A DNA stretch of 44,380 nucleotides from Catajapyx aquilonaris (Eukaryota), in assembly GCA_000934665.2 (NCBI GenBank), contig JYFJ02003260.1, forward strand, positions 1-44,380, in the 5' to 3' direction. The translations under genes and the position numbers were made by a program. A model generated the notes under the pieces. It made no database searches. It had not been told where the DNA came from and worked only from the letters and a program-made list of their open reading frames with translations. Positions 1 to 27,807 of this stretch are shown piece by piece. Position 1 is the first letter of the stretch. Every line of letters starts with the position of its first letter.

Positions 1-154
1 TAAATCCGCCACTGGCTGATAATATGGGGAGTGTCTGGGGGCTGGTACCGAATCTTCGGAAGGGGCGCCTCTTCGGAAGGGGCGCCTTGGGCGCCCCCCA
101 TCGGGTTGCGCCCTTGGCGGGGGCCAATTTCGCCACCCCCTAGGTACGCCTCTG
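1..154. mobile_element. Right-hand ends of hAT-like non-autonomous DNA elements (truncated by window edge)
   Basis: TAAATCCGCCACTG (1-14) and CCCCCTAGGTACGCCTCTG (136-154) are reverse complements of CAGTGGCGGATTTA / CAGAGGCGTACCTAGG-type termini common in insect MITEs. The interior is GC-rich with a 17-nt tandem duplication TCTTCGGAAGGGGCGCC (53-86). No matching left ends are visible. Confidence 0.4.
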
Positions 155-7754: not shown

Positions 7755-9877
7755 TTGTAGGCCTGTAATGTCTCTCCGTCTTGGGGGTCAATGGGCGTCT
7801 GATGCATTAGGAAAGCGATACACCTGTATACAAACACCTACAGTAGCCACTTGGCGTAGGCACCGATGCATTTAATCCTTTACAGTATACCTGAAGTGGG
7901 ATGCAGGACATCAAATGCAGCCAAGGTTACTCCCAATTGTAACACACGACAGGAAATTATTGGAAATCGATGTCCCCTGGTTATACTCTCATCTTGTTTG
8001 GACTCTGTGGGATGAAATTTTTGTATTCAAAAAAAGGGGGGTGGGTATAGGCGGTCCTAGTTTGAATCACTTTGGGCCTGCTCCAGTTGCGATAATGACC
8101 CACGGGGTACGTTGCAAAGTAGGATCGAAATTGTTAGTGGGCCCGGGAAAATTTTCATGCAGAGCTCCATCTTCGTTTTCTGGATTACTCGTCAGGATTA
8201 CCCAGGGAGCAAAAGGACACTGCTTTAACTCCAGTAAAGGCTCGATTTATCTCTGGCGGTGGAATGGATGCCACGAGGATTTTGGGCAAACGGAGGCGGG
8301 GAGAGGGATGGAAAAAGGAAAGGGGAAAAAATAAATAAAGGGAGAGAGATTGTAGCGTATCTGGCGAATGCCACCCGGACATCAAAGGGGACAGGGAAAT
8401 TGCTTGGGCAAAATTGGCTGAGGAATAACTAAAAGGGACAGATTGCTGCACTGTAGCCGCCACAAGATGGACTCGGGATTCTGGGATTTAAATCGGTTGG
8501 AATACGGAAATGTCGATCAGGAGCTCTATATATAGTTCTTGACGGAAGTGAGAATAGTGAATAAATTTTTCACTAATTACTGCAACTGTGTGAACACAAA
8601 TTATTATAATATGTCTAATAATTAATTAAATAAATAATAATTTTTATTAATTAGGTTATTTGTACCTACATTTCGGAGGGCTGTCATGAGTACATGCGTT
8701 AATACTACGGACTTCTGGCCTTGGGTCACGGCACATGTCTCTCACGTCACTTTTGAATCTGCCGCTGGCGTTTATTGACCTATGAGATTAATCCTTCAGC
8801 CGTTTATCGATGTTATATCCTAGCTGTACGTATAAGCCCATAAAATAAATCTCGAATGGAAACGCCGTAATATTGGAGGAATAGTGTCAGGAATCAAAAG
8901 ATTCTTGTGAGCTATGAATAATAATGGATCTTGGGAATGGGCAAGTGTGCAAGTCTTAAAATGTAGTATGGTCGTCACCTCACTCTGAATTGTTAAACTT
9001 TAGCAATGTTAGTCTCAGGCAAGGATGAAAGCTAGTCGGTTGGGTGGGTGGCACACGAGAGACACTTTGTGACAGGTGATTTCCTTATTCATGTGCAGGC
9101 AATATTTAGAGGGGACACTCTCGCTTGTGTTACGTTGCATGACAGGAGCTTCCTGGGATTAAAAATCGCGAAGAAAAACCGACTATACGTAATTTATGGA
9201 CGTAGCTCCTTGCAGGAAATTACAAGAGGATTGAAAGAGGTGATGAAAAAAAATATTATGGGAAAAAGGGGTGGGTGGGGGGTGTAGTTTGCGAGGCAGC
9301 TGGTGGAGCTAATCCGACCTGAAATTAATTTGAGGGCTTCATTCCCATCCCCGAGGCGTGTGCTGAAAAGAGGAAAACACAGGCAACACCTCGAGAAGTA
9401 TAGCTCCTCTCGGCTCTTACTATTGGCCTAATGCCTGGGAATTGGGACTAACGCGAGTCCCCGGAGGATCTCCTGCTAATATTCGGCCTCGAACTTTCCC
9501 GGAAACTTGTTGGGTAGTTAAGTCAATCTGGTAGTGCTGGGATTGCCTCCTGTGTCAAGTCCCATCACTCAACGTACGTACCTGATATTGCGAAATGGCT
9601 GGAACGCTTTGGACCCATTCAGACGAGTCAACTTATTTCTCCCAAGACATGTTGTTCACACGAGACAACGTTATATGCATGTCTGGATGGGGCCATTGTT
9701 GTTGACTCATGCTCTATGTGGATGGTACTTAGTTATTTGCTAGCTGATACCTGAAATATTTCTTTTTCCTATTTTTGCACGCTTTCTGACAGCTGGACTG
9801 AAGTGTGAGTATTACTAACCTGCTGTGTGAGGTGTTTTAGAGGGTACACAGATCTGATGTCATCTCTTTTTCTGCAG

Positions 9878-10069
9878 ATACTGACAATCAGCGGGTTATC
9901 ATCCATGTGAAGGATGTCAATGATGAGCCACCATATTTCATCAACCGACCACTTCCAATGCAGGCTGTCGTTCAACTCAATGCACCGCCTAACACCCCAG
10001 TGTTCACCCTGCAAGCAAGGGATCCCGACACGGATCACAACATTCACTATTTCATCGTTAGAGATCGAA
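9878..10069 (+). CDS. CadN: Neural cadherin coding exon (first exon in window; internal exon of a larger gene)
   Basis: Acceptor tctttttctgcag|AT, donor GAA|gtatgt; 192 nt, phase 1 to 1. Translates (D)TDNQRVIIHVKDVNDEPPYFINRPLPMQAVVQLNAPPNTPVFTLQARDPDTDHNIHYFIVRDR, with cadherin DVND and ARDPD Ca2+ motifs. I recognise it as near-identical to Drosophila CadN. The ORF track misses this frame. Confidence 0.95.
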
Positions 10070-10133
10070 GTATGTAACACTATGCAACATTACGTAACTG
10101 ACAGGATACTAATATCTCTTTTCCACAAACCAG

Positions 10134-10380
10134 CTGGAGGCAGGTTTGAAGTCGATGAGCGGTCTGGTGTTGTTAGGACCAGAGGGACTGATCCATTCCA
10201 ACTTGACATGGAGTATGTGCTGTACGTGAAGGCAGAAGATCAAAATGGGCGCATTGATGACCGAAGGTTCCAGTCGACTCCAGAGGAGAGGCTGTCAATC
10301 GTGGGAGGCAAGAGACCGCCACAGTTCTACATGCCCAAGTATGAAGCTGAGATCCCGGAGAACCAAAAGAAGGATTCTGA
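10134..10380 (+). CDS. CadN: Neural cadherin coding exon
   Basis: ccag|CTGGAGG ... TCTGA|gtaagt; 247 nt, phase 1 to 2. (T)GGRFEVDERSGVVRTRGTDPFQLDMEYVLYVKAEDQNG...PENQKKDS(D). Confidence 0.95.
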
Positions 10381-10440
10381 GTAAGTCCTAAGTCTAATTG
10401 CCATGTGAGTTAGAGTTACAATTATTATTCTTGTTTGCAG

Positions 10441-10657
10441 CATAATATCAGTGAAGGCCAAGTCATTTGCTGACCGTGAGATCCGCTACACTCTGAAGGC
10501 TCAGGGTCAAGGTGCTGGGACATTCAACATTGGCCCCACTTCAGGGATTGTCAAGTTGGCCAAAGAACTGGATTTTGAAGATCTCAGACAGCCACATGTG
10601 TATCAACTAATTGTGACTGCAACTGAAGACTCAGGAGGATTTTCCACGTCGGTTGAG
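10441..10657 (+). CDS. CadN: Neural cadherin coding exon
   Basis: ttgcag|CATA ... GTTGAG|gttagt; 217 nt, phase 2 to 0. IISVKAKSFADREIRYTLKAQGQGAGTFNIGPTSGIVKLAKELDFEDLRQPHVYQLIVTATEDSGGFSTSVE, with an LDFE cadherin motif. Confidence 0.95.
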
Positions 10658-10714
10658 GTTAGTTTTGATAATAGTTGTGTTGACGAAGCATTACTAATGG
10701 GAGATGCTTTTCAG

Positions 10715-10991
10715 CTGACTATCCGAGTGACTGATGTGAATGACAACGCACCCAAGTTCGAGCTGCCTGACTATCAAGCACATAATGTCGATGAAGATAT
10801 TCCAATTGGAACGTCAATATTAAAAGTCAAAGCAACGGATTCAGATTCAGGATCCAATGCTGAGATCGAGTACCAGGTGTCAGATGACCACTTTAGTATA
10901 GACTCCAATGGAGTTGTGGCCAACAACAAGCAGCTGGATGCGGACAACAACAATGCCTACTATGAGTTTGTGGTGACAGCTAAGGATAAGG
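10715..10991 (+). CDS. CadN: Neural cadherin coding exon
   Basis: tttcag|CTG ... AAGG|gtgaga; 277 nt, phase 0 to 1. LTIRVTDVNDNAPKFELPDYQAHNVDEDIPIG...EFVVTAKDK(G), with a DVNDNAP linker. Confidence 0.95.
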
Positions 10992-11219
10992 GTGAGAAAG
11001 GGAGACAATACATTTAAAGACTGCTATTGATAACTGTATCAGGTATTGCCTATTGTGTTGGTGTCATTTATGCATCACTGGATTTAATTGTGGCTCTGTA
11101 TTATGACATCCTGTGGACATGTCATTGACACCATGTCATGATACAGCCACATCAAATGACTTAATTGATAGATTTGCAAGCTAGTGTAACACATGAGTGA
11201 TTAATATTTTTGCATTTAG

Positions 11220-11689
11220 GAGAGCCATCCAAGACTGGCACTGCCACGGTGCGCATCTACACCAAGAATAAAAATGACGAGGAACCAAAGTTTTCACAAC
11301 AAGTATACACGCCAAATGTGGATGAAAATGCAGGTCCAAACACTTTAGTGACAACAGTAGTGGCATCAGACAAAGATGGTGACAATGTTAGGTTTGGATT
11401 TGTGGGTGGTGGAACAAAATCTGGCCAGTTTGTAATTGAGGAAATTACTGGTGTGATCCGTCTTCACAATGGGGAGATCAACTTAGACAGGGACAAATAT
11501 GAACTGAATGTAACTGCAATGGATGATGGGGCTTGCTGTGAAAATGGCGATCTCACCATCCACACCAGCACTGCTGTTGTGGTTGTATTTATTACTGATG
11601 TCAATGACAACAAGCCAATATTCAAAGACTGTGCCACTTACAACCCGAAGGTGGAAGAAGGAGCACCTAATGGAAGTCCTGTCATTAAG
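11220..11689 (+). CDS. CadN: Neural cadherin coding exon
   Basis: atttag|GAGAG ... ATTAAG|gtaatt; 470 nt, phase 1 to 0. EPSKTGTATVRIYTKNKNDEEPKFSQQVYTPNVDENAG...TDVNDNKPIF...GSPVIK. Confidence 0.95.
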
Positions 11690-11941
11690 GTAATTCAAGT
11701 AGGATTTATGGTAATTGTTTTTGGGTAATTGCCAAAAAAATTGCTTAATGCTTGCCATAACTCTTTTCTGGTGGAAAATAACCATGAAAGTGGTGCAGTG
11801 CACATAAAATGGGAGTGTCCAGTTGCAGTTTTTGTCCCATTACGGAATGATATAAAATAATGGCCAACTGGGTGTGGTGGTTGTTGATTGAGTTAAGCGG
11901 AAAGGGAAATAAAACCCAGCGAAACTGTCCCCTGCACACAG

Positions 11942-12067
11942 GTCCATGCCACTGATGAAGACAAAGGAGTCAACGGGCAGGTGAAATATTCCATCGTTCA
12001 GCAGCCTAACCAGAAGGGAACCAAGTTTACTGTCAACGAAGAGACTGGAGAAGTTATCACCAACAAG
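11942..12067 (+). CDS. CadN: Neural cadherin coding exon
   Basis: acacag|GTC ... AACAAG|gtaagg; 126 nt, phase 0 to 0. VHATDEDKGVNGQVKYSIVQQPNQKGTKFTVNEETGEVITNK. Not in the ORF track on the + strand. Confidence 0.95.
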
Positions 12068-12701
12068 GTAAGGGAAATATATCGCTCTCATTCTTCAGTA
12101 GAGATATGATGGGGGATTCTGTGTGAATGCATATTGTTAGTGATGCTTTGAACTTTTGAACACTGACGTTTGTAGGAAGGCGCAAAGCCTGTTAAATATT
12201 ATTATACAGGTCTCTTGTTTGACCAGAGCACTTTTAGCTGGTGTATCTGGGTTTGGGTTTGTGATGGGACAGGATTTATGAAAGTGGTTGGTTAAGGTTG
12301 CTTGCAAAAGCCAGGTTACTTACAGGGCATCATTCTCATGCTTGTAACCACAAGGCTGCAGTTTCCTTTCTGGTCTAGAACAGTGCGTCAGTGGCATGTG
12401 TTCTGTTCTTTGATCTCTCAAACTGTGAAAGAAAGGCAATTAAATCCTGTGTTGAGGCATATCAAATAAACTGAACAATTTGAGCCATGTATGCAGGTTT
12501 CATGAGCGTTATTTTTAGAATACAGAACTTGTTGGAAAGTATTGATTTACTGGTAGGTTTTATTACTGTGTTTATTGAGGAGGAGGCACTGTGAAGTGGG
12601 AGATGCTATGATTTCCCTGCTTTTTGTTTGGATAGCTTTTACATCTTTACTGAAACTATTGCATAAACTTGTGACTTCAACTTGCTATTCTTCTTTCCCA
12701 G

Positions 12702-12848
12702 GTGTTCGATCGAGAAGGTGATGATGGAAAGTTTGTGTCTGTGACTGTAAAGGCTACTGATCAAGGAGATCCATCTCTGGAGGGAGTATGCTCCTTCACT
12801 GTTGAAATCACTGATGTTAATGATAACCCACCACTGTTTGACAGACAG
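12702..12848 (+). CDS. CadN: Neural cadherin coding exon
   Basis: ttcccag|GTG ... AGACAG|gtgaca; 147 nt, phase 0 to 0. VFDREGDDGKFVSVTVKATDQGDPSLEGVCSFTVEITDVNDNPPLFDRQ. Confidence 0.95.
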
Positions 12849-12928
12849 GTGACATTTAAAAACATTTTCATACGGTACATTACAGAAAGTTATAAGCATT
12901 ACCAATAATGTTTGTGATGTTTTTTCAG

Positions 12929-13120
12929 AAATATGTGGAGAATGTCAAGCAGGACACAAGTGTTGGGACCAATATTTTGCGTGTGTCAGCCTCAGATGAA
13001 GATGCAGACAACAATGGAGCCATTGTTTATAGCTTAAGTGCACCTTACAATCCTTCAGATCTGGATTATTTTGAAATCCAGCCCGAATCAGGATGGATTG
13101 TTCTCAGGAAGCCTCTTGAC
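12929..13120 (+). CDS. CadN: Neural cadherin coding exon (constitutive exon upstream of the 7a/7b pair)
   Basis: tttcag|AAA ... CTTGAC|gtgagt; 192 nt, phase 0 to 0. KYVENVKQDTSVGTNILRVSASDEDADNNGAIVYSL...GWIVLRKPLD. Confidence 0.95.
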
Positions 13121-13986
13121 GTGAGTATCCACTTGCCAAATTTACTCATTATTTGTACATATTTTATTGTTTTTTCCCAAGTTAGTGTCAGTTCAAAAGG
13201 AATAGTTTATAATCTGCAAGATGATTAAATTTTGTGGTTAAAATATTTTTGAAACTCAAGTGAAAGTCAGTGCAAACTAAATCCAAAAGAGAGTTATAGA
13301 AAGTGTAGAGACGACGACTTGTTCTGAGCAGGATAACACGTGAGGTAGATGTTAATGTCTATTTAATGACCACTTTTGCCTGTTCAGTTTGCGTTTTTTG
13401 AAACAAAGGATTAATAAGGGCAAATTTTTGAAACATTAAATTTTTGAACAGCTTTTGTCAATACCATGAGCAAGCGAGTGAAATGTATTTTTTACATGAA
13501 ATCTTGCGAGAGATTCTAACAATTTTTTCAAGAATCGTGTGAACTTTTTTGCCATTGGCAAAAGTGGCCAAGAAGATTTTTTTACATTTTTATATTTGTA
13601 AAGACTTCTCCCTCAAACTGTCTAGAAGTGCTTTTTATTCTCATGGTTTGAACATTTCTATCTTGCCCTGTCATTTTTGTCTTTTATTGTTTTTGATGGT
13701 GCAGTTTTTCCACCTGAGTAAATTTTTGACGCTACTTGCTTGAGTTTCTGCACTGGATTGAATTTGTGTATTTTTATTATTATAGTATCACACTTTCACA
13801 ATAACAGTACCTGAAGGATGTTAGACAAGTTTCCTAAACGCTGCAGCGGCAGGTAACTTCGGAAGAGATCCCCACTATAATGAAAAAAAAAAAGATAAAC
13901 CTTTTTGGCCTTCAATGTCCAAATCTTGTGCTAATTATAAGAATTTAAAATTTTATGTGACCAAAGGGGTAAAAATGCTACTTTAA

Positions 13987-14120
13987 CCCATTCAGTGGCT
14001 ATCACAAGATCAATTTTTCAAAAGTTGTCATGTAGTATGGTGATGTTGTACACCACAATTTATTCTGAATCATTATCTCCAATTGATAGAAAGCATGATA
14101 TAGGCCGGGCCCTCAATGGG
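13987..14120. mobile_element. piggyBac-type MITE (134 bp)
   Basis: TTAA|CCCATTCAGTGGC ... GGCCCTCAATGGG|TTAA. TTAA target duplication (13983-86 and 14121-24), CCC...GGG termini and imperfect short TIRs. Confidence 0.65.
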
Positions 14121-15177
14121 TTAATATATGTAGTCATTTATTTTGAGAAAAAAATGGTGCCTTGACGAGCAGTACGAAAAAAAGGAGTGTAGGTTCCTCT
14201 TGGGGAGGTCTGTATACTTCTGTCAGACCTGTAAAAAAAAAAGGCTTAAATCTTTGTTGTTGAATAACTGTGGCATTTCCCATTAATAAGACATGTTGTA
14301 TAGGGGAAAAGAGATGGCAAAGTTGCGCAGTGTTTGAATTGAGGGTAAGTCCAATTCACTCTAGTTGATTGGAGCAGCATCCAAATGCATTTCCCAGTGA
14401 ACCAGGAACTGGAAAAATGTTGCCGCATGCCACATGTTCAGTCTCACTGCATGAGCCGCGCATTGATAATTTGTTACGTGGAAAAACGCGAAAAAAAGTT
14501 TATGCAGCAAAAAAAAGCGCATGCAATAAAGCTATTTTATGCATGACTGTTGATGGATTAATGCTGTTCGTAGTGTCTTTTACACATCTGAGTCTTACTC
14601 TTTTGTTGTGATTATTTTCAGTAACTTTTTTCATTAGTTTTAATTTTCTATCCGTCATCCTCCCTTTGATCGAGGGATGCTTTTCCTCGTAAGTATTTTC
14701 CAATGTCCATGTTGTGTGTGTTTTTTGAACAGTTTTCATTTGCCAGACAATTTTTGATCATCTCGAAAAGGAGAGGATTTTTTGTGTAGATATTTTGTAA
14801 GGTTTTTTGCAGATATTGCCTTTTGCTGTCTGTGACATCCATGTTGGAAAAGAAAGAAACTTTTTTCTAGCATTAGAGTGCAAAAAAAAATATTTTTGAA
14901 AAAAAAAAAAGAATTTTTATAAAGAAGCCAATCCCACTTGCTGTGGACATAGCTTGAATGTTTGGAAGTAGTTGTTGCATTCCGTTTTAAGCATTTGGGA
15001 TACAGTAAGGCAGAGAGTTGTTGCATACATTTACTTAGTACTTGTTGATTACGGAAAGCAGAATATTGTCTTTTTAGTTTCTTGAGTTGACCAAAAAAAA
15101 ATATAATTTTCTTTTGCCATGGTTATGTGGTGTGCTCTTGACTGACCTGTTGGCACATTTTTTCATGCCACCTGTAG

Positions 15178-15368
15178 CGAGAAAGGTATCGTCTGCAAGT
15201 GAGAGCCTCAGACAGAGGCACACCTCCCCTGTATGCTGATGTGGATGTTGAGTTAGACGTCGTAGACAGGAATAACAAACCACCCGTGTGGGATCGGAAT
15301 GTATACGGCCCCATTTACATCAAAGAAAATGTCACAGTTGGTACTGTAGTGACTTCAGTGAAAGCAAG
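15178..15368 (+). CDS. CadN: Neural cadherin mutually exclusive exon, upstream copy (7a equivalent)
   Basis: ctgtag|CGA ... GCAAG|gtttgt; 191 nt, phase 0 to 2. RERYRLQVRASDRGTPPLYADVDVELDVVDRNNKPPVWDRNVYGPIYIKENVTVGTVVTSVKA(S). Paralogous to the next exon and the same length. The a/b naming follows order and my recall of Drosophila CadN. Confidence 0.93.
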
Positions 15369-15910
15369 GTTTGTATATGGGTTCGATCTTAAGAGGTTAA
15401 GAGCGGGTTCACGATGAGGGTGGTTGTCCCCACGAAAGGCTGGTCTTTCTTCTGGCTACGTTGCATGATGAGTGTGCCGCGCTCTTTATTCTTTTCTCTT
15501 TTTTCTACCTGGGCCCTCCTTTTTGATTGCGTCCTGGTCCCTCCTTAACAGCGTGTCCCCCTTAACCCGCAGCCTTTTATTTAGCCCCCCACACGGGTGC
15601 CCCATTGGATGGATGACATGAATGAGTGGTCTGCTTGTGGTCATCGTCTTTTTTCCTTCCAGCTCTACCCCCTTCGTGCAATGTAGGAGAAAAAAGGTCA
15701 GCCCTCTTTTTTACACTCTTCCCGCTCTATGTGTGTGTCTACCACGGAATCTCTCGACTGCTCTGTGAAACCACCTTTTGCCCGCCCTACTGCCACCCAC
15801 TGACACCCCAATACACACGTGTACAACCTGCGGGTCCTGCGACAGACAAAGACCAAATACCCCGAGGAGGAACCTCCCTGCCTCGACAGCCACCCTCTAT
15901 CTCCCTAGTG

Positions 15911-15931
15911 GTTAGTACTAACATGACTAAC
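15911..15931 (+). promoter_or_regulatory. Tandem branch-point / STAR-protein (QKI/How)-type elements upstream of exon 7b
   Basis: TACTAAC at 15916-15922 and GACTAAC at 15925-15931, followed by a pyrimidine tract and the 7b acceptor (AG at 15976-15977). Confidence 0.6.
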
Positions 15932-15977
15932 AACCTTCATTTCTCTCTTTTTTTGGGCTTTTACTCGTTGAACCTAG

Positions 15978-16168
15978 CGAGAGACATACAAGTTGGAGGC
16001 GATTGCCCAAGATAAAGGATTTCCTCCCTTGTCCCGAACAGTAGAAGTTCAGATTGATGTTGTGGACCGAGCAAACAACCCGCCAGTGTGGGACCAAGTG
16101 GTCTACGGACCAATCTACATAAAAGAAAACATGCCTGTGGGCGCTAAAGTTGTGTCAGTTAAAGCCAG
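15978..16168 (+). CDS. CadN: Neural cadherin mutually exclusive exon, downstream copy (7b equivalent)
   Basis: acctag|CGA ... GCCAG|gtctgt; 191 nt, phase 0 to 2. RETYKLEAIAQDKGFPPLSRTVEVQIDVVDRANNPPVWDQVVYGPIYIKENMPVGAKVVSVKA(S). Confidence 0.93.
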
Positions 16169-18118
16169 GTCTGTTAGCCGATTTAATGTTGGTTGATCCG
16201 TGCGGCACGCCTGCTCCCTTTGCACGGCACTGTGGGAGTTATGTATTCTGCACGCTGACTACCCACACTCAATATTTTGCACGTACAAGTTCTTTGGTGT
16301 GTGGCTGTCAAATCCCTTGTACTTTTGTGTCCCAATATTTTGCCTCTATTTCCTGGAGTTAGGCCAGCCTAGCTAGCGGGACAATGGTGTGATGGTGTGA
16401 GAATGCTCTCCTATCTCATTCCCTTTTTAACCAGTGACAAAAAGACTCAGCTAACATACAAATCAGACCAGAGCAATACAGTTCAGCCAGTGAAACAAAG
16501 AGACTGAAAAAGAGAAGGAAAAAAGAGAGATATTTTTTCATCATGCAAAGGTTTTTTTCTTACAGGAGACCTACTTGTGGTGGGGACTCTGAAAGTGTGA
16601 GAAAGATGGCGAGAGAGTGTGCAGCTGTGTGTGTGTGTGGAAGGGGGCACACGATTTTTTTCAAGGGGGTCTCAACCCACTTTTCCCCCAAACTCTTTTA
16701 ATCATAGTTTTTTGACAAACCATATTTTTGAGAGCTGAATGTTGTCACTCTTTTTCCAACTCTATCCCCAACCCACCTTTTCTACACTTTTTTGGGGTTG
16801 GTAACGTTAATATTTTCTGGGCATAAAATCCAAGACTTAAAGAAAAACAGGCTTGTACGCAGGTTTCAGGCCTCACTCGCATATTTTTTGTAAAAAAAAA
16901 AATCAACCAGTCAGTGGGCTCCATCGGTTCTGTTGAGCACAAGCACTTTGTCGTGTGTAGTACGTACGTGTTATTTTTTGCAAATATTGTTACTGACCTG
17001 GCTACAAGGCTGTTTTGGCTTTTTTTGTACAGCACTAAAAAGGACCCTTTCATTGCCTGCAGTTGGGCCTCAGCCGTGGGAGATTTTGAGCACACAGTTA
17101 GTTTTTAAGCCAATATTGTCCAGGTTTTTTAATTGTAGCAATCCTCCACATCCCCAAAGTTAACTGCTGAAGGACAACATTCAGCCACCACAAGTGAACC
17201 GGGAAATTTTGTCGTTCAGCCAGTAATCCGTTTTTTTTTTTTGAAGGAACTGGAACTGATTTTTTGAGAATGGTTTTCCTCATAGCCAATTTGGGGATCT
17301 GCGTAAAAGAGCAGTTGGGCTTGATCAGCATGCAGAAACCCTTGTGTAATAATTTGCTTTGAATGGTATGGAACATGGTGTGTGGGCCTCAAGTCAGTTT
17401 TTTGGAAATGACTTTGACGTTAAAAAAAAAAGCAGCAAAAGGGAGCAGCTTAGCTGTAAGGATATAGACGGTTGTAAATGTTGTTGCTCTCCAGCCCAGA
17501 CCGTACGTGTCCAGAACAGAACTGACGAGTGTGGCATGTGACAAGGTAGTTTTTGAGTAGTATTTATCATTAGAACCGATTTGTGATTCTTAGAAATTTG
17601 TAATTTCGTGAGTTATTTCTCTGAACACGAGCATTTTATTTCCTTGATATGCATGTGTTGCATTGGAAAGTGTGAGAAAGCAGGCAGCTCTGTAAGGTTT
17701 ATTTTTTTGTGCCTCTGCTAAATAGATGATCAGGACATAGTTTGAATGGAAAGAGCCCATATCGGGTGAGTGGGCTTTTGATCTTGACGCTATTATTCAT
17801 CAGCAAGCATGTTTCATTTGCTACAGCCTCATTTTCCAGGACAAAAAAATATATTCTCAGAGGTGCCATTCGTTCATTGGTTCGTTGCCTTGTTTTGGCC
17901 ATAACTTCGCATTCATCTTGTTAGTGGCGTGTGTTCAGTAATTAACAGTAGTCTCAGAGTATGACCAGGGACTTGATTTTGTGTGCTGTTTTGCAGTTCA
18001 AGTGAGAAATTATTGAGTAGTTGTATAACAGTAATAATAATTATATCAGTGCCAGTGTCTTCTTAACCTCCACGAGTCACCTCCAAATGCACTCAGCTTA
18101 CATACCACATGTAGAGTA

Positions 18119-18207
18119 GATGATAATAATAATAATGACAATAATAATATTGATGATGATAATAATAATAATATTGATATTGTTGATAATAATGATAATA
18201 ATGATAA
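18119..18207. repeat. Imperfect (AAT/GAT)n microsatellite
   Basis: Directly visible trinucleotide array. Confidence 0.9.
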
Positions 18208-18362
18208 CAAATCAAGGTTTTTAGCCCCAAGATTACAGTACAAAATAAGCTCCTTCACTATCCTTTCTCACTGTAGTTTGGAAGTCAAGTTTCGAACTAA
18301 TAGATATAATGAATGTGCACTGCCATGGATTGCAAATGACGCCCCTGCCTTTTCCCCTTCAG

Positions 18363-18552
18363 CTCAGGGATTGAGGGCAATCCCACGGTTTACTACCGAC
18401 TCATAAGGGGCTCCACTGCCCAAACAAACAAGTACGACACCTTTTACCTCCAGCAAAGAGGCGATAATGGGTTCACTTGGGCAGACATTAAAGTGAACCA
18501 CCCACTGGATTACGAGAGCATAAAGGAATACAACTTGACCATCAGAGTGGAG
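18363..18552 (+). CDS. CadN: Neural cadherin coding exon (constitutive exon downstream of the 7a/7b pair)
   Basis: ttttccccttcag|CTCA ... GTGGAG|gtatgt; 190 nt, phase 2 to 0. SGIEGNPTVYYRLIRGSTAQTNKYDTFYLQQRGDNGFTWADIKVNHPLDYESIKEYNLTIRVE, with an LDYE motif. Not in the ORF track on the + strand. Confidence 0.95.
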
Positions 18553-19274
18553 GTATGTATGGGAGATGTCACTTTTAGAAACTGGTGTACAGGTACTGGT
18601 ATAAATCAACCAGTTCCGGGAACCAGTGCACACTGTTTTGTTTTTGTTTCTTTCTCTTGCAGGCTCTAGTAAATTTGTCTTCTTCAATTCAAGTTTCACA
18701 TTGTTGTGGTGATTTAAAACATGGGAATATTTAAAATCAGAATTTTGAGTTCTGTTGATGGGAGGGAAACATGTCTTTTGAGGTGTTTGAACCACACAAA
18801 AATTTATTCTCCAATGAACAAGTTTCGTTTGAATTCAGGTTCTACTACAAATAGTAAGACTTGCTTAGTATTGTGGTGTCAATTTGGGACATGAAAATGC
18901 TAAGCTTTGTGTTGTAATACTGTATTACCCTGCAATCAGTGACAAGCTTGTAAAAACGCCGTCAACGCAATATTTGAGAAAACATACATTTTGTCATCAT
19001 TATAATGGCATGGAGGTATATAGGGGGGTTTTCCATTCTTTTACCTGCAAAAAGTATAATTTTTTGTTATGTAAAATTAATGAGAGCATATCAAAGTTTC
19101 ACATCTTCATTCCCTGTCAACATGACCAGTCAGGAATAGCTGCTGTAAGTCACTTGCCAAATTTTACAATAAAATGTACCCTCCCCTGCCCTCCATTATC
19201 TGAGGATTAACTTTTGAGTTTGAGGATCCAGTCAAGATGGTGGCACTAGTGATATGGTAAGATTGGTAACAGTA

Positions 19275-19443
19275 CAGTTTTGGACATAAATCGAGGCATA
19301 GTCTACTGCTAGTGGCATTTTCTGAAGCGGCAGAAGAAGGAATCGAAGATAAGCATTCTGCAAGCCGGGTGAGCAAGATTTCTTCTTCTGCCGCTTCGGA
19401 AAATATGTCGCTAGCAGTGTGCCTCGATTTATGTTCAACACTG
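19275..19443. mobile_element. Tc1/mariner-type hairpin MITE (169 bp)
   Basis: TA|CAGT ... ACTG|TA. Imperfect inverted arms of about 70 bp (ACATAAATCGAGGCA / TGCCTCGATTTATGT; GAAGCGGCAGAAGAAG / CTTCTTCTGCCGCTTC) around a spacer of about 27 nt. Confidence 0.85.
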
Positions 19444-19909
19444 TATATGCGCTTTTCAACCCCCTATCCCACCCTTCTAACTAAATTGCAGGCAGCCCTA
19501 TCTTCACAGCAACACTATCATTGATATCCCTATACCAGCAGGTAAAATTCGTTTGAAACAGAAAACATTTTTTTGATAGATACCTGCTGTAAGTAATTGC
19601 AGTTGAATCATGATATAACTGCCTTGGCTGTAACAGACTTTCGGTTATAACAGACTCGAAAGGCTGGTCCTGCCATACTTCCATAAGGCCCTGTGTATTT
19701 TACTCCTGATGTAACACTCATTTTCACCTCATCATCTCAGGTATAACGACCATTTCTTGTCCCCTCGGTGGAAAATTTTGCTATTTTTTTATTACTCAGC
19801 TTCATTTCCCAAGCAAGGAAAGCATCACATATTAGAGGAGGGTGATTTTCCCACCTGTCACTGATGTAACACTTGCAGAAAAGGTCAAAATTATTATTTT
19901 TCTGTTATA

Positions 19910-20645
19910 CGAGGGCTATTTTAAAATGAAGTTCCAATGACCTGTGAAATAAAAACAACAGAACTGAAAAATGTTTTAATATTCGCAAAAGTGAGAGTCA
20001 TCCTTCTGCTACTTCTCCACATAGTCACCTTCCCAATTGAATCACTTGTCATAACATGGAACCCTCTTTTGTAACCCTAACACAATCGAAGCTCCCGCCA
20101 AATGCTATACTCGCTCTGTAATCAGATTTCTCCCAAGCTAAAGGACATATTGCAGCCAAAATTCATAGGAGATTGTGTAATGTGTATGGAGAGAAGCGCA
20201 TGAGTGACATTGCTGAATCGGACAAATTGATGTTCATAATAAGGAAGATCGTGGGAGGAAATCTGTGGAGACTGACAAGTTGTTGAAAAGTCAACAAGGC
20301 TGGTTTAGAGCACATCAGGTCACAATTTATGACCTGTCTAATGATTTCCCCCCAAATTTTGGGGTCACAACTTCATGAAATTGTCCAGGAAAGTTGGGCA
20401 CAAGCATTGTGCAAAGTGGGTTCAAGAACAACGAAGAGCTGAACCAGTGGGTGGTAGGTTGGCTCAGTAGCCAGGCAGCAACCTTCAATGGGGTAGGCAT
20501 ACAAAAACAAGTGATTCAATCGGGATGGTGACTATGTGGAAAAATAGTATAAGAATGTAGCTAACTTTTGTAAGTATTGAATTTTTTCATCACTCTTGTT
20601 TTTAATTCACAGCTCAGTGGAACTTAATTAAAAAAATAGTCCTCA
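19910..20645 (+). mobile_element. Internally deleted, degenerate mariner-like transposon
   Basis: TA|CGAGGGCTATTTT ... AAAATAGTCCTCA|TA with extended TIRs. Remnant N-terminal transposase, frameshifted (IEAPAKC..RSVIRFL..AKGHIAAKIHRRLCNVYGEKRMSD, about 20086-20210). Mariner C-terminal DGDYVEK* at about 20524-20547. Confidence 0.9.
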
Positions 20646-20917
20646 TATATGGCAAGGACGAGACGGCAGAAGAAAATTGCGGATTTTTTTTTGTCCCATG
20701 ATTCAGTGGTAAAGTTTCCTTTACAGAATTTTTGTTTTGTTGCACCTGAGGATTTTCAGTTATTCATCACATAGGGTCATAGGCCTTCAGATGTCTCTTT
20801 TTGGGGGAAACTTTCATGCTGTTGGGAGAGACTTTGCTATAGGCCATCCAGGAAAAGGCTGCATTGGTTTTCTGGGGTTTTGAAGTAGAGTTGCCAGATG
20901 CAAAAGGAACCCAAATA

Positions 20918-20939
20918 TGATAATGATAATTATAATAAA

Positions 20940-20974
<35 letters not shown>

Positions 20975-21226
20975 TCATACCCCGTTATCAGCCTTTTTCG
21001 GCTCTTTAGGGGGAAAGTTTGTTTTGTCTGGAACTCTTTGCTTTTCATTTTACTGCGCTTTTTGGGATAGGATAGGGACAGAAGGAAGCGGCTGTGGCCT
21101 ATTAATTACGGAAGGACCGTGGGAAACCACAGAAAACCACGGTCAGCGTAGCTGGCCCCGGGATTTGATCCCAGGACCTCCCGATTAACAGTCAGACACC
21201 ATATCCCCTACTCCAAACTGCTTCGG
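20918..21226 (-). mobile_element. tRNA-derived SINE, degenerate, with (TTA)n tail
   Basis: Minus strand reads CCGAAGCAGTTTGGAGTAGGGG (A-box-like), TCTGACTGTTAATCGGG (anticodon-arm-like) and GGATCAAATCCC (B-box-like). The body GGAAGCGGCTGTGGCCTA...GGAAACCAC (+ strand) resembles SINE cores I recall from non-holometabolous insects. The (TAA)n run at 20944-20974 is positioned as the 3' tail. Confidence 0.65.
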
Positions 21227-22139
21227 TAAAGGAACCCAGATATCCCACATCCATGTTGGAATAAAAATTTCCCACCTGGCTACTCTACTTATCTTCATGG
21301 TAAACGTAGGGACTGGGGAGGAGGGTAGGGGGGGGGGGGCTGAAAAGTTGGAAAAACCCACCTAATTCCTGCAGTCTCTTGGTTTCCCTTTACAGATAAT
21401 TTTTTCTCATGAGTTTTTAAATGTAATACACAATTCAATAAATGCCAGTGTGACTCCATTGAGATTTGTGCTGTTTCTGACATAATACTGAAGCACAAAT
21501 ATTCAGTGAAAATTCGGAGCAAACTTGATGATTAATATGGAAACATTAAATATTGTACCTCACATTACCTGAGAAATTTCACATTCTCTCTCAAAGTGTC
21601 ATAAATTTAGTTGAGATTCATATAGGCCTATTGTTTAAGCCTAAAAGGACAGAGACAGTTCATGTCGCAAGATTCTAGTAGTTTCACTTTGAATCTGTGA
21701 TGTCCTTTCTCTAATGCGAATAGTATTTCAAGACATGACTTCTACTGTATATTTACATTAATAGAGAGACATCACACGTTTTCCAGTGAACCCTAAGCAG
21801 CATTGCAACATTAATCATCTCCTTCATTTTGGCCGTGCCTTCATACTGGGAAGCACTCCATATCCCTGGACATATTAATTATTTTTGTTAACGCTGGTCT
21901 TTTATGGCATCAAATCTTTCGTTTTGTGCAACTTTTTCTTACAACTCCACTTAAAGACTTCTGCACTATACCACCTCACCTCTTCCAGTACTTTCAATCT
22001 TAAGCCTCCTGAGAATTACAGTCAAAAGAGAAGTTATTCTTAAGAACTGTTCAAATTCAGCATTGGTATCATTCCCAGCTACCTTCTTCGTTCTGTTCAA
22101 TTGTCTTGCTGGCTAATATTTAAGAAACTGAAAAAAAAG

Positions 22140-23157
22140 GTTCTGCAATGGATGGAAAGTGTTTCAGTATAATTAGGTCTCTTTGATGCTCAAATTGCAC
22201 CTGTAATTTTATATGGAGCCCAGGTCTGGGGTATTGCTCATTTAGCGATTTTTGATGAGGTGCAAAATTATTTCTTGAAACGGTTCTTTCAGCTGCCTAC
22301 TAACACGGCGAACTATTTTGTAAGATTGGAACTAGGCATTCGACCATTGTCAGGTAGAGCGCTAAGGCTGATTGGAAAACACCTGATTAAGCTGGTGAGT
22401 CTCCCCACGTCTCGGCTTCAGAAGCTGGCTTATCTTGACTTCAAAAACGAGCTACCGGCTCATCCCCATCCCCAAACTGGTACAGTAAGGTCCTACACGT
22501 ATTTTCAGAAGCAGGTCGTGACAATTTAGATAGGTTGGAGCTCTCACTCGGTGCAGTTATCCAGACATATGAAGAACACATGTTAAGTGGTAGTCGTCAG
22601 GCATTAGCCCGCTCAACTCGCTATGCCTTTTATCGTGAATTAGTCCCTGAATCTCTCCCGGTGTGGTATATGGGTGTGAGTCGACCGCTGCCGATCACTA
22701 GAATGTTTGCCAATCTCAGAAATCAATCCACCTCCTTATACATACGTGGCCAAAAAATTACCTTCAAGTGTGATGTTCCATGCTCGTGGTGCAACTCCCC
22801 TGATATCAGGCTTTTTCATTACATCACATCTTGTACAGTTGTCATTTTTTTAATCACGCCCAGGGTAAATTTTGTGTCAGACATGAGCGTTTTCCCGTCT
22901 GACAAGACCCACCTACTTTTTGGACACTTGCCAAAAGAAGTGCTATATCATTCATTCAATTTTTTTGATAATGTCAGAAAGCGAATATACTTTTGAGGGG
23001 ATTTCCCCTGAAATTCCAGTGTGAACGATACCATGGGTGAACGAATTGTATGTAATGTAATTGTGAGGTAATGTATTATAACGAGAGTTGTGTCCCCCCA
23101 AAAGGGCTCTGCCCTGATATCGGGGTAACTAAATAAAGAAATAAAAATAAATAAATA
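22140..23157 (+). mobile_element. 5'-truncated, degenerate non-LTR retrotransposon (LINE; RTE-X-like C-terminal region)
   Basis: Post-RT motif LFDAQIAPVILYGAQVWG...EVQNYFLKRFFQLPTNTANYFVRLELG. C-terminal CSWC...H...C zinc-knuckle-like motif, stops/frameshift, a short 3' UTR and an (AAAT)n-like tail at 23131-23157. The clade assignment is tentative. Confidence 0.8.
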
Positions 23158-24392
23158 CAGTATTATTAGGTCTATAAATATTGAGTAAGTGACTTAAAAT
23201 CTGCATATTACGGCAGCAATATTTCTGAGGTTTTTGAGGTTAGTTGCTGCAATGCCCTTGTCCAATATACTTTGTTGTAGTTTTATGACTCATGAAGGTG
23301 CTTTGCTACTCCATTACATGATATTTTCTTCAATTATTTTTATTTGAGAGCATTATTTTATGCTGAGACGGAATCATAGCAGGCCTGATGTCCTACCTGT
23401 GTTCTGTGCATGTACCATGTAGTTCAGAATTGGCTCCCATCCCCATCCTTTAAAATCTCATATGCTCATTTTCATTTGTTGCCATGGCCTCATCTGCCAC
23501 TGTGGCACTGATTGTGAGTGTGGACATCTTTGGAAAGCTTGATACTGGGATGTCCAATGTTTGCAAAATTACATGCCAAATGCAAGGTCAAGTGTCTGAG
23601 GCAAGTGTCGCGAAAATGTCACTGCTGAACATGCTAGTAAAATTCTGAAGCATAGTGTATGCCCAGTCTGTTGATTAGTGAATTGCACTGACAGTATGTG
23701 ACCAGTTACAGAGCCAATTATGATACAGGTATACTGTACTTTTGCAAGCAGTTTTCTCCTGATTCCAATGCCATGACAATATTCCAGAGACCCTGTTTGA
23801 GTACGACAGGAGTATAATATATCATTAATCACTTTTAATGACATTTAAACGAATGACAAATTTGGCTGACCTGAACATTCTAGTAGAGTACATGTATATG
23901 CAAGTACAGTATATTTTGTCTGTAAATGTTATTAAATTTTTCCCATAGTCCACTGCACTCTTACTGTTAGTATGGTGAATGCCTGAAAGTGTAGGATTAC
24001 TGAACTCTGGACCCATTAGCAGTGCAAGTAATATGTATATTGGCTTCCTTTTCTAAGATTCTTACACTGAATATTAATTTGTTTCCTGAAAATTGTATGT
24101 GTCTTGGCATTCTTCATGCCTTTGACAAAAACTTTAGTACTGTATTTCAAATTGATGATAACAACTTTTCCTGCTTCCTCTATGTGAAGCTAACATCAAG
24201 TCCTAAGTGTGAAACATTGTTTTTCTTTGATTGTAATGTGGATAATATTTTTGGATGTTACCTGAAGAGGTTTTAAAGCACCACAACAATACCATGTTAC
24301 ATTATAAGAAATGATTAATAGATTCTACAAATTTGACGAATGATTCAGTGTGCATGTGTATGTTAAACAACTATCTCTTCTCAAACCATTAG

Positions 24393-24575
24393 AACAATGG
24401 AGCCCAACAACTGGCATCTGAGGCCACCATATACATCATGCTGGAAGATGTGAATGACGAGATTCCGCTGTTCACAGAGCGAGAGCAGGAAACTGTTCTT
24501 GAAGGGGAGCCCATTGGAACGAAAGTCACCCAGACCAATGCCATTGACAAAGATGGCACATTTCCCAACAGTCAG
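24393..24575 (+). CDS. CadN: Neural cadherin coding exon
   Basis: cattag|AAC ... AGTCAG|gtacat; 183 nt, phase 0 to 0. NNGAQQLASEATIYIMLEDVNDEIPLFTEREQETVLEGEPIGTKVTQTNAIDKDGTFPNSQ. Confidence 0.95.
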
Positions 24576-24692
24576 GTACATTAATTTCAACTTCAAGAGT
24601 GAAAACTTTCTAACCGTAGTCAAAGAGCACTTTGAACATGCCTTACTGTGCTTTAAAGAGCAAACACGATGAAACACTTCTGCTGCTTTCAG

Positions 24693-24882
24693 GTGTACTA
24701 CTACATAGTGAACTCTTCGCGCAATGAAGGCAAAGACTACTTTGAGATCAACCCGCAGACTGGAGAGATATTCACCAAAGTTGTGTTTGATCGAGAGAAG
24801 CAAGGCGCCTATGCACTGGAAGTAGAGGCGAGAGATGGCGCCCCTTCTGCACGACCCAACAGCAATGGACAACCCAACTCAG
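24693..24882 (+). CDS. CadN: Neural cadherin coding exon (last exon found in window)
   Basis: ctttcag|GTG ... TCAG|gtagga; 190 nt, phase 0 to 1. VYYYIVNSSRNEGKDYFEINPQTGEIFTKVVFDREKQGAYALEVEARDGAPSARPNSNGQPNS. Confidence 0.95.
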
Positions 24883-27807
24883 GTAGGACTTTTCACTCGT
24901 TACTTGCTATTTCAACTGGATTGCCAGTTCCTGAGGAGCGGCTTTGTGTGTGACCAAAATGAGCTGAAACAATGCTGTGGCATAAATTGAGTTCCATGTA
25001 ACTGGATTTACTCTGTTGTCTGACACACAAGGAAACACAATCACAACCAGGCTGTAATTGCATTGTTTTCAGTTAGCATACATGAGATGCATTCTCCCAG
25101 GTATAAATCGCAGTAACTACCAGATGCTACATCACATATGCAAATGTTATCATTCATGCAGGCTTCAATGGGTGAATAAACACGCCTGGATAAATATTGG
25201 AGAACATAACAATACTTGTTGACATATCATGACTGGCCTAATGACGTTATTACATTGAATTTGCATTTTTTAATGAGGGGGCACCGCTGCACTCTTTGTC
25301 AGAAGAGGGTTTGTGCCACTGCATGTACTTGGGAGAGTCGCTACAATTTTGTTAATGGATAGTGTGTATGCTGTTAGTTTTGATTGCCAATTAGCGGAAG
25401 AAAAATAACACTATTTAGGTACTGACGTGCACAATTCATCAACTCAATTGTTAGAATAGGGATGAAATTGAAAATGGTGAGCAACATGTGGTGAGTTGGG
25501 TGACCAAATGACTGCATAATTGATGACAAAAAGTGTGCTATGCAGGCATACCAGTGCATTGTTCTTATTTGTACACCTTCAGCAGCGTACATATTATCTG
25601 GATTTATTTATTCTGTGTGAGAAAGGTCACGTTTGAGCATTTTAGATCTTCTGTACGACTCGCAGGATATTTAACTACATTGTAGGTAAGGTTGCGATGG
25701 ACCGATGATGATCATGATACCTGTTATTGTATGAAGAATGCACTTATTCCTGAAGCTGTAAAAAGTAAAGGGTTGTTTAAGCTCCTTAATATACTTGACC
25801 ATAGTTGCCGAACGTTCAGCAAAATCCGGGGATTTTTGAAAATCCGAGTACTCAGTGTGCGCTCTCAATCTGTTTCAATTTTCTTTTGTTTTAAATTTTG
25901 GTCCAGTATTAAATTTGCAGTGAAAGTCTCTCATCAGAGAAGCCGGATGCGAGTAAGTTGGAATATTGTCATTGCAGGCTGAACATGTGGTCCAGATTTT
26001 CCGTCTCTACAGGCACGATTTTGAGCACACGGTCCAATGCAGATGTTAACAATTGCCTGGCCATTTCATCACACGGGTTGCTAAGCATATTGGAAAATTT
26101 TCGGGTCCTTCCACTTTTGAAAGTAGCCTCGAAATTGAGGCCACCCCCTTCCAAAAAAAGGACAAGAGTGTCTTTATTTCTCTGAAGGGGGATTTCTTCA
26201 GAACATTGGTGGTGATAAATCCAGCCTTCCGACACGGTGCAAATTGTCGATAACAATAGTCTCCCAAGTGAAAAGGCCGCCTTTACATGAAAGCAAAAAA
26301 AAAAAAAAAATTTTTTTTACAAAAAAAAAGGGTCCTCTTGCCGCCACCATTCTTCTTGATAGTTCCAAATGACTTGCGCTAGAAGTGAGTGGGTTTTGGC
26401 ACTCGGACTCGGGCAGTAAAGGGAAAAGAAAAATACTGTAGTAAAAAAAAGGTAAGGTAGCGGGGGCGGCTGACTCTTTTGATCTAGATTTTTGGACCCC
26501 CATAAGGCCAGGTTGGCAACTTCACACAGAGTAGAGGGGGGTCCAAATGGCAAGACTTTTCGATTATTTACTCAGCGCAAGTATCGGGAAAGAGAAGTTT
26601 GCTTTGGGAGTAGATTGCAAGGAGGGGAAGGAGTTATTTTTTTGTGTTGTTTTTTATCGAGGGTGGAGGAGGTGCAGGGGGTTTTCTCTGATGGTAATAA
26701 GTGGAAGTCGAGACTGTTTCCTCTCCTGGGATTGTGTTTGCAGTGGAGCAGTGGAATTGAGCAAGTTTGCAGGTCTGGGTCGTTCATTGCGCTACTTTGT
26801 TTGCTGACCTCTGTGAGTACACTGGCGATTTCTGTACTGATTTATACAGGTCTGTCAACTTGCCATGTGGGGGTAATTCGGCTTGTACATAAAAATGTAG
26901 CCAATGGCGAAGAGGTGGCACAACACAGGGGAAAAACCTGAATAATGTAATAAGGAATTTAATAATGAGAATATTTTAGTATACCTGCTTTGGTACTTGG
27001 ATATACCTAATTTTGTGACGGAGTTAGTAGGTAAGTTATTTAATTACTGAGTGGAAATCATAACCTGAAGTACGCTTATTTGAGGAAAAAATTGCATATT
27101 ACCAAAGCAACGCCGAGATTTCCCATATGTATTTTTTGAAAATGAATTAGGGGCAAAAATGAAGTTTTGATTAGTTCAGCGGCTATGGTGGGTAATCAAT
27201 AATCACTTATGCAAACTTCGCTCTTTGTTGATTAATATTGTATAAGTACTTGGTAATATCGGGGGCATTCTGGGGATTCTATTGTAAGCTATTGAGCACT
27301 GCCTGGATCACGCTAGACTATAAGTTGACTTTAACGTTGACCTGGCGTGACGGAATAATTTGGTTGTACTTTAATGAGAAAAAAGGCAGTTTTTTTTACA
27401 TTTGATTCTCTCCACTGCGAAATTTTTCTGCGGCCAGGGAAATACGTGTGGAGTTACAGTGTGAGTATTCATAATTGATATTTTTTGTGCCTCAGAGGAG
27501 AGCTTGAAAAGAAAATTTAAATTATAGAACTCTGCTGGTTATTAGAGAAGGTTTGCCACTCGAATTTCCCCCATGTGTAAAGCTATTCACACCTATTTTA
27601 AATAACGAGTTTTAAGTACCGAATAATTTGCGCTACACATGTTTCATACGACCCAATAATTCATTTGGGGCTTTCAGCCTGTGGGACTTAACATGTCTGC
27701 AGTAACTTCATAACTATTTTTAAATGCGGCAGAGTAATTATTTATAACTCTAATATCACAGCTCTGAATATCGCTTCTCTTTGCAAAGAGTGATTGTCCG
27801 TTAGATC

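Follow-up and report, generated by a model that had tools for sequence, protein, structure and literature searches.

How does an arthropod N-cadherin (CadN) gene choose between its mutually exclusive exons 7a and 7b? The pair is described for arthropod N-cadherin by Hsu et al. 2009 (PMC2655722) and in a review (PMC3245913), and a search of the literature found no explanation for the mechanism of this conserved choice. The accessible passages of Hsu et al. 2009 deal with exon conservation and expression; they contain no RNA-pairing mechanism, and the term 'secondary structure' is absent from them. For the window analysed here, a 44,380-nt stretch of DNA, a preliminary description had proposed that intron 6 pairs with the intron between the two exons over about 34 bp (Duplex I) and thereby loops out 7a, hides it, and presents the 7b acceptor to the upstream donor. 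If Duplex I works in this way, CadN would join the short list of genes with mutually exclusive exons chosen by long-range RNA pairing, and the N-cadherin exon 7 switch would have its first reported control by RNA structure. Our literature search, which had most subscription journals outside its reach, brought up no paper that reports such pairing for CadN.

A known arrangement of this kind is the exon 4.1/4.2 cluster of Drosophila srp (serpent), for which the accessible parts of Yue et al. 2016 (PMC4691838) describe bidirectional intronic RNA pairings. In the upstream srp pairing (Ud:Ds), disruptive and compensatory mutations show that inclusion of the distal exon is driven by pairing, and the four srp elements were found through their high conservation among Drosophila species (PMC4691838, same parts). 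The question addressed here is to what extent the pairing proposed for CadN resembles such a system in its anatomy, its predicted stability, its departure from chance and its conservation.

The exon 7 cluster of CadN in the window

A 150-residue exon at 11240-11689 shows 91-94% identity to neural-cadherin (CadN) from many insects, which identifies the gene in the window as insect CadN. Its cadherin-repeat exons lie on the + strand from about 9874 to 24893, and no exon was found in the window beyond 24893, leaving no ME-13 cluster to serve as an internal replicate. Exons 7a and 7b are tandem exons of 191 nt, each preceded by AG and ending in AG followed by GT, and they are flanked by constitutive exons (Table 1). 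Within the window the two share 64% protein identity. To the matching exon of relatives 7a is 76-89% and 7b 74-94% identical at the protein level, compared with 48-65% to the other exon. Both match the C-terminal third of the Cadherin profile, 7a at profile positions 65-92. With 63 codons each and this a/b orthology, the segments 15178-15368 and 15978-16168 are ME-7a and ME-7b, the mutually exclusive pair of arthropod N-cadherin. Gene and exon pair are thus the same as those treated by Hsu et al. 2009 (PMC2655722, accessible passages), with a/b orthology stronger than a-b paralogy. An RNA contig of a related organism (run X5, record 9) spans exactly 15978-16165 with 30 unaligned letters on either side; it fits a spliced mRNA that contains 7b, its flanks being too short for placement.

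In insects a 12-nt micro-exon, 7a', is additionally described between 7a and 7b (Hsu et al. 2009, PMC2655722, accessible passages). It was not located by a simple AG-N12-GTR pattern in window positions 15369-15977 and in seven related loci: one unrelated candidate each appeared in the window and in locus L007, and none in the six other loci.

As 191 nt is not divisible by 3, inclusion of both exons or of neither shifts the reading frame. Frame shifts upon double inclusion or double skipping, combined with mRNA surveillance, are an established route to apparent mutual exclusivity. Judging from exon length, frame and mRNA surveillance could enforce the exclusivity of 7a and 7b.

Table 1 Features of the exon 7 region, given in positions of the window
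Feature	Position	Strand	Remarks
Exon 6 (constitutive, upstream)	12926..13120	+	donor GTGAGT at 13121
Duplex I, 5' arm	14191..14233	+	in intron 6; 1070 nt past exon 6 donor, 944 nt before 7a acceptor
Local hairpin competing with long-range pairing	14206..14230	+	complementarity confirmed
Exon 7a (alternative)	15178..15368	+	191 nt; AG acceptor; donor GTTTGT
Companion pairing, 5' arm	15399..15456	+	5' part of 7a-7b intron
Duplex I, 3' arm	15829..15875	+	in 7a-7b intron; 460 nt downstream of 7a, 102 nt before 7b acceptor
Tandem branch-point consensus TACTAAC..GACTAAC	15916..15931	+	about 50-60 nt from 7b acceptor
Exon 7b (alternative)	15978..16168	+	191 nt; AG acceptor; donor GTCTGT
Conserved block after 7b	16169..16315	+	four GCACG, at 16205, 16222, 16250 and 16279
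Companion pairing, 3' arm	16351..16410	+	in intron after 7b
Exon 8 (constitutive, downstream)	18363..18550	+	an RNA contig joins 18550 to 24391

Anatomy and predicted stability of Duplex I

The stems of the proposed duplex are all present in the sequence where they had been placed. The outer stem joins AGGTTCCTCTTGGGG (14191-14205) to CCCCGAGGAGGAACCT (15860-15875) in 15 bp with one bulged base and one G-U pair. Further inward follow GGTCT (14207-11) with AGACC (15850-54), TCTGTC (14219-24) with GACAGA (15841-46), and an innermost stem of 8 bp with two G-U pairs between GACCTGTA (14226-33) and TGCGGGTC (15829-36). The suggested extensions, 14291-306 with 15806-22 and 14166-72 with 15878-85, are partly complementary, as had been claimed, and the window pair 14260 x 15789 in the extension region reaches -40.4. 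For the duplex as a whole (RNAduplex, 14185-14240 x 15825-15880) the hybrid energy is -49.7 kcal/mol over 37 pairs, which join 14185-14234 to 15828-15880.

The setting also agrees with the proposal. The 3' arm, said to end about 40 nt before the branch-point elements of 7b, ends 41 nt before TACTAAC (15916-22) and GACTAAC (15925-31), and the hairpin described as a competitor within the 5' arm (AGGTCTG 14206-12 / CAGACCT 14224-30) exists; local folds of this arm use a related stem-loop, and its local folding is unremarkable (z = -0.94). The anatomy of the proposal is correct: the arms bracket 7a, and the 7b branch points follow closely downstream of the 3' arm. Each arm is present in a single copy, with a DNA depth of about 33 against a baseline of 32.5 (run X1), and a search allowing up to 3 mismatches finds the 22-nt core at one place in the window. 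An A-run follows the 5' arm. An Rfam search of 13100-18400 returned no family and one sub-threshold chance match (13976-14001).

Predicted stability is more modest than the hybrid energy. Opening both arms costs 19.7 + 20.8 kcal/mol against the -49.7 kcal/mol of the hybrid, which leaves a net energy of about -9 kcal/mol, and when opening cost was computed for the 26 strongest pairs, eight others matched or beat the net value of Duplex I (-9.8 kcal/mol). In a partition-function fold of 14000-16700 (2.7 kb) Duplex I is absent from the minimum free energy structure. Its ensemble probability is about 0.5 for the outer 15-bp stem, about 0.37 for GGTCT/AGACC and about 0.01 for the two inner stems, so that roughly the outer 20 bp, not 34, are thermodynamically credible. 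The 34-bp duplex holds as complementarity in the sequence; once local folding is allowed, only its outer half is predicted to form.

A companion pairing (candidate Duplex II) crosses Duplex I; if formed, it would loop out 7b. Its arms, 15399-15456 and 16351-16410, reach -55.0 kcal/mol as a hybrid, the second-best value in the window, and the region 15399-15473 has a second partner at 16536-16588 (-45.1 kcal/mol). The ensemble probability of the companion is 0 and its net energy +5 to +8 kcal/mol, both arms being locked in local structure; with these values we do not enlist it for an srp-type reading.

Comparison with shuffled and real sequence

Two controls were applied to the question of chance, and they disagree. 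Dinucleotide shuffles rarely produced a duplex as good as Duplex I: 2/393 did so with 100-nt windows (real -60.9, mean -46.6, sd 4.85), 0/48 with 60-nt windows (real -48.6, mean -37.7, sd 3.5), and 0/60 when shuffling was limited to intron 6, with the 190 nt before 7b left as they are. The real-sequence control covered the + strand of the whole window, with arms 150-3000 nt apart and 3741 seeds. Here Duplex I ranks about 14th among the long-range duplexes of the 44-kb window, with 12 independent pairs stronger and one tie; several of the stronger pairs come from G+C-rich sequence at 1-1.7 kb, and a repeat accounts for two. The number of such duplexes expected by chance between intron 6 and the 7a-7b intron is about 13 x 1.25M/126M = 0.13. 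Duplex I is only modestly beyond chance, clearly in relation to dinucleotide shuffles and weakly in relation to real sequence. A 'correctly' placed intron-intron match of -50 kcal/mol can arise at a roughly one-in-ten rate in real sequence, which calls for caution in scans for structures of this kind.

Two other measures were set aside. A gapped local-alignment score with G-U pairs proved too permissive (real 87, shuffle mean 85.5) and was dropped as a test of Duplex I, and RNAduplex on entire introns, which yields one giant meaningless duplex, was not used.

Duplex I in related loci

The 7a peptide, used as a query against metagenome contigs, gave 17 related loci. Seven of these contain exons 6, 7a and 7b (L001, L006-L009, L014 and L015) and represent three other insect lineages; the duplex tests cover none of the remaining 10, in which intron 6 is missing. 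L006-L009, which share 97.5-100% mutual identity, are nearest to the window. When 12900-18600 was compared with seven of the 17 loci by blastn, alignment was confined to the exons, the segments 15873-15977 and 16169-16315, and 35 nt ahead of 7a. Neither arm was among the aligned segments, and the conservation peak anticipated at 14191-14233 does not appear; the block shared with the nearest relative begins at 15873, and the 3' arm lies just outside it. Aligned by Smith-Waterman to intron 6 of five loci, 14100-14340 scored at the shuffle mean.

The scan for duplexes between intron 6 and the 7a-7b intron found none above background in L001, L006, L007 and L014. The best equivalent duplex reached -35.3 or -33.1 kcal/mol in L007 (32/56 and 45/51 shuffles as good), -33.1 kcal/mol in L006 (37/48), -38.4 kcal/mol in L014 (3/48 and 16/156) and -45.0 kcal/mol in L001 (6/53). 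In every lineage the 3' arm of the best duplex lies 75-174 nt before 7b and the segments are G+C- or C-rich, a bias for which the restricted shuffle tests, those on relatives included, already account. A conserved complementary pair at equivalent positions, the yardstick chosen beforehand for the proposal, was found in none of the reachable relatives, all of which are distant. On this first of the two counts named beforehand, the idea that the pairing sets the choice between 7a and 7b fails, for lack of a conserved or analogous pair among seven orthologous loci in three other lineages.

The exons of the relatives are 62-84% identical to the window at the DNA level and most of their intron sequence is unalignable. 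Given this distance, a structure specific to the window's own clade could go unseen in them. Published selector and docking pairs are often clade-specific. In run X5, from a close relative, the RNA contigs cover neither arm of Duplex I, and one of them stops aligning at 15753 with 91 further letters. Other searches for relatives came back empty: the exact 21-nt arm pattern had no matches in metagenome contigs, the 7a peptide found no relatives in the genome-contig or viral-contig collections, and a protein search with the open frame 15626-16012, which runs through the 3' arm and could have caught intron read-through in relatives, gave no hits.

Conserved intronic elements around exon 7b

Other parts of the same introns are conserved. 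The last 105 nt before 7b (15873-15977) are shared with the nearest relatives and include, at the branch points, ACTAACATGACTAAC, which is identical in L006-L009 and has a similar counterpart in L012. The weak donors GTTTGT after 7a and GTCTGT after 7b are likewise conserved in relatives.

Downstream of 7b the motif GCACG is clustered. Four copies stand within a span of 80 nt in the block after 7b, out of 22 on the + strand of the whole window. In the 200 nt after 7b, three copies each were counted in L001-L004, L011 and L012, four each in L006-L008, one each in L010 and L013, and none in L005, L014 and L015 (L009 is left out of this count); in the 200 nt after 7a there are none in 11 of 12 loci. 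The expectation for the 200 nt after 7b is 0.1, compared with 3-4 observed in the window, L001-L004, L006-L008 and L011/L012. The cluster falls within the first about 120 nt downstream of 7b and is conserved in four lineages, the window included. According to the accessible parts of a preprint (10.1101/840272), GCACG is treated as a primary-variant Rbfox motif, and exon inclusion correlates with the number of motifs found in the first 250 nt of the intron downstream. In the literature search, no paper stood out as connecting Rbfox1 with CadN exon 7. From its sequence, the block 16169-16315 is a candidate conserved enhancer of 7b inclusion.

Within this block, at 16263-16310, CCCACAC and GGTGTGTGG can pair around a loop that contains TGCACG. 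Both elements are invariant in the window, L006-L009 and L012, and there is accordingly no covariation by which to judge the hairpin.

Comparison with known systems

The cluster resembles srp in being a two-exon mutually exclusive cluster in which an element of the upstream intron is complementary to an inter-exon element near the distal exon, and, in terms of hybrid energy, in showing a second, crossing complementarity between inter-exon and downstream introns. In contrast to srp, the arms of Duplex I are not conserved in the available relatives, the companion has an ensemble probability of 0, and the pairing is a computational prediction. Duplex I thus lacks conservation, a defining feature of the published cases. 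Docking-site and selector structures that compete with one another are described for Dscam exon 6, 14-3-3 zeta and Mhc in the accessible part of a review (PMC3245913). As in those systems, long-range intronic pairing would put one variable exon beside the constitutive donor. They differ in having one docking site for which all selectors compete, whereas the 5' arm here has no second partner before 7a: when it was compared with all 2955 60-nt windows of the 44 kb, the site before 7b gave -52.2 and the next independent partner, which is not before 7a, -39.2.

The three to four GCACG motifs after 7b are similar to the GCAYG clusters of Rbfox-dependent downstream intronic enhancers (10.1101/840272, accessible parts). 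Unlike Duplex I, such a cluster is a protein-binding signal that involves no RNA pairing; for CadN this role is putative.

Readings of Duplex I

The pairing exists, is only partly stable and is not conserved, while other intronic blocks around it are conserved. We regard Duplex I as a genuine, lineage-restricted complementarity between unique sequences that, with a confidence somewhat above even, is most likely fortuitous, unselected and not the switch between 7a and 7b. It is probably not a conserved exon switch because the match is missing in other insects and is only modestly beyond chance. A functional element is more likely absent than present, and we infer that Duplex I is neutral and that regulation is carried by the conserved blocks. 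Control of the conserved choice would more likely reside in elements common to other insects. These may include the weak conserved donors GTTTGT and GTCTGT, the tandem branch points before 7b and the GCACG (Rbfox-type) cluster in the first 120 nt after 7b, together with the 191-nt exon length, which would put double inclusion or skipping out of frame. Attention thereby shifts to the GCACG cluster and the branch-point block around 7b, which are likelier to be the regulators.

An srp-type upstream pairing is a less probable reading, to which we still give appreciable weight. The core at 14191-14212 and the element 100 nt before 7b would loop out 7a and favour 7b by bringing the exon 6 donor near the 7b acceptor, acting as a lineage-specific tuner atop a conserved protein-based control; the hairpin in the 5' arm would work against them, as perhaps would pairing of 15399-15473 with 16351-16410 or 16536-16588, which would favour 7a. 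The topology, from the upstream intron to just before the distal branch points, is identical to that of Ud:Ds in the accessible account of srp (PMC4691838). All stems are present and beat their shuffles, the outer stem keeps its probability of about 0.5 across 1.6 kb in the 2.7-kb ensemble, the arms are single copy without extended inverted-repeat similarity, and the crossing companion holds the second-best hybrid energy of the window; with distant relatives only, a clade-specific structure may be invisible. Against this stand the lack of arm conservation and of any significant analogue in the three other lineages, a chance expectation of about 0.13 such duplexes given the window's own sequence, a net energy no stronger than about -9 kcal/mol with inner stems near 0.01, a companion that is predicted not to form (probability 0, positive net energy), and a literature search that found no RNA pairing reported for CadN. 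More specifically, that a de novo srp-like pairing (14191-14212 / 15849-15876) tunes the 7a:7b ratio atop an ancient GCACG (Rbfox-type) enhancer behind 7b is less likely than not. Were it true, srp-type membership would be new for CadN, and such pairings could be young and clade-specific, arising and turning over fast under a splicing pattern that remains unchanged over hundreds of millions of years. Complementarity between flanking introns can also favour circularisation. Duplex I might therefore promote back-splicing of 7a, instead of or besides shifting the ratio of linear isoforms; its arms do bracket a single internal exon at 944 nt upstream and 460 nt downstream. This is very improbable, as the same non-conservation and modest stability count against it and no back-splice joint occurs among the RNA contigs mapped to the region, where coverage is sparse. 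It is just as improbable that the arms are remnants of oppositely oriented repeat copies or of an inverted duplication, with the complementarity a by-product of insertion history. True repeat-derived inverted repeats do occur in the window, such as 19919-20049 / 20507-20635 with a DNA depth in the thousands, and the A-run after the 5' arm would suit an insertion of this sort. The arms themselves have baseline depth, their core is single, and the best alignment of 13900-14600 to the reverse-complemented 7a-7b intron scores 12.0, below the shuffle mean of 13.1 (248/300 shuffles as good), all of which leaves a repeat or inverted-duplication origin unsupported.

Inverted repeats and G+C-rich sequence elsewhere

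In the intron after exon 8, positions 19006-21590 form a high-copy repeat region in which DNA depth rises to about 117,000, compared with 32.5 at baseline, and the inverted arms 19919-20049 / 20507-20635 within it make the window's strongest duplex. The first 1700 nt of the window (1-1700), which precede the mapped exons, are G+C-rich (GC 0.48) and are the source of 5/14 of the strongest long-range duplexes. Locus L007 carries short-range inverted repeats in its introns at 12738-13178 and 15036-15516, with energies of -83 to -99 kcal/mol over 340-480 nt, and these look like foldback elements.
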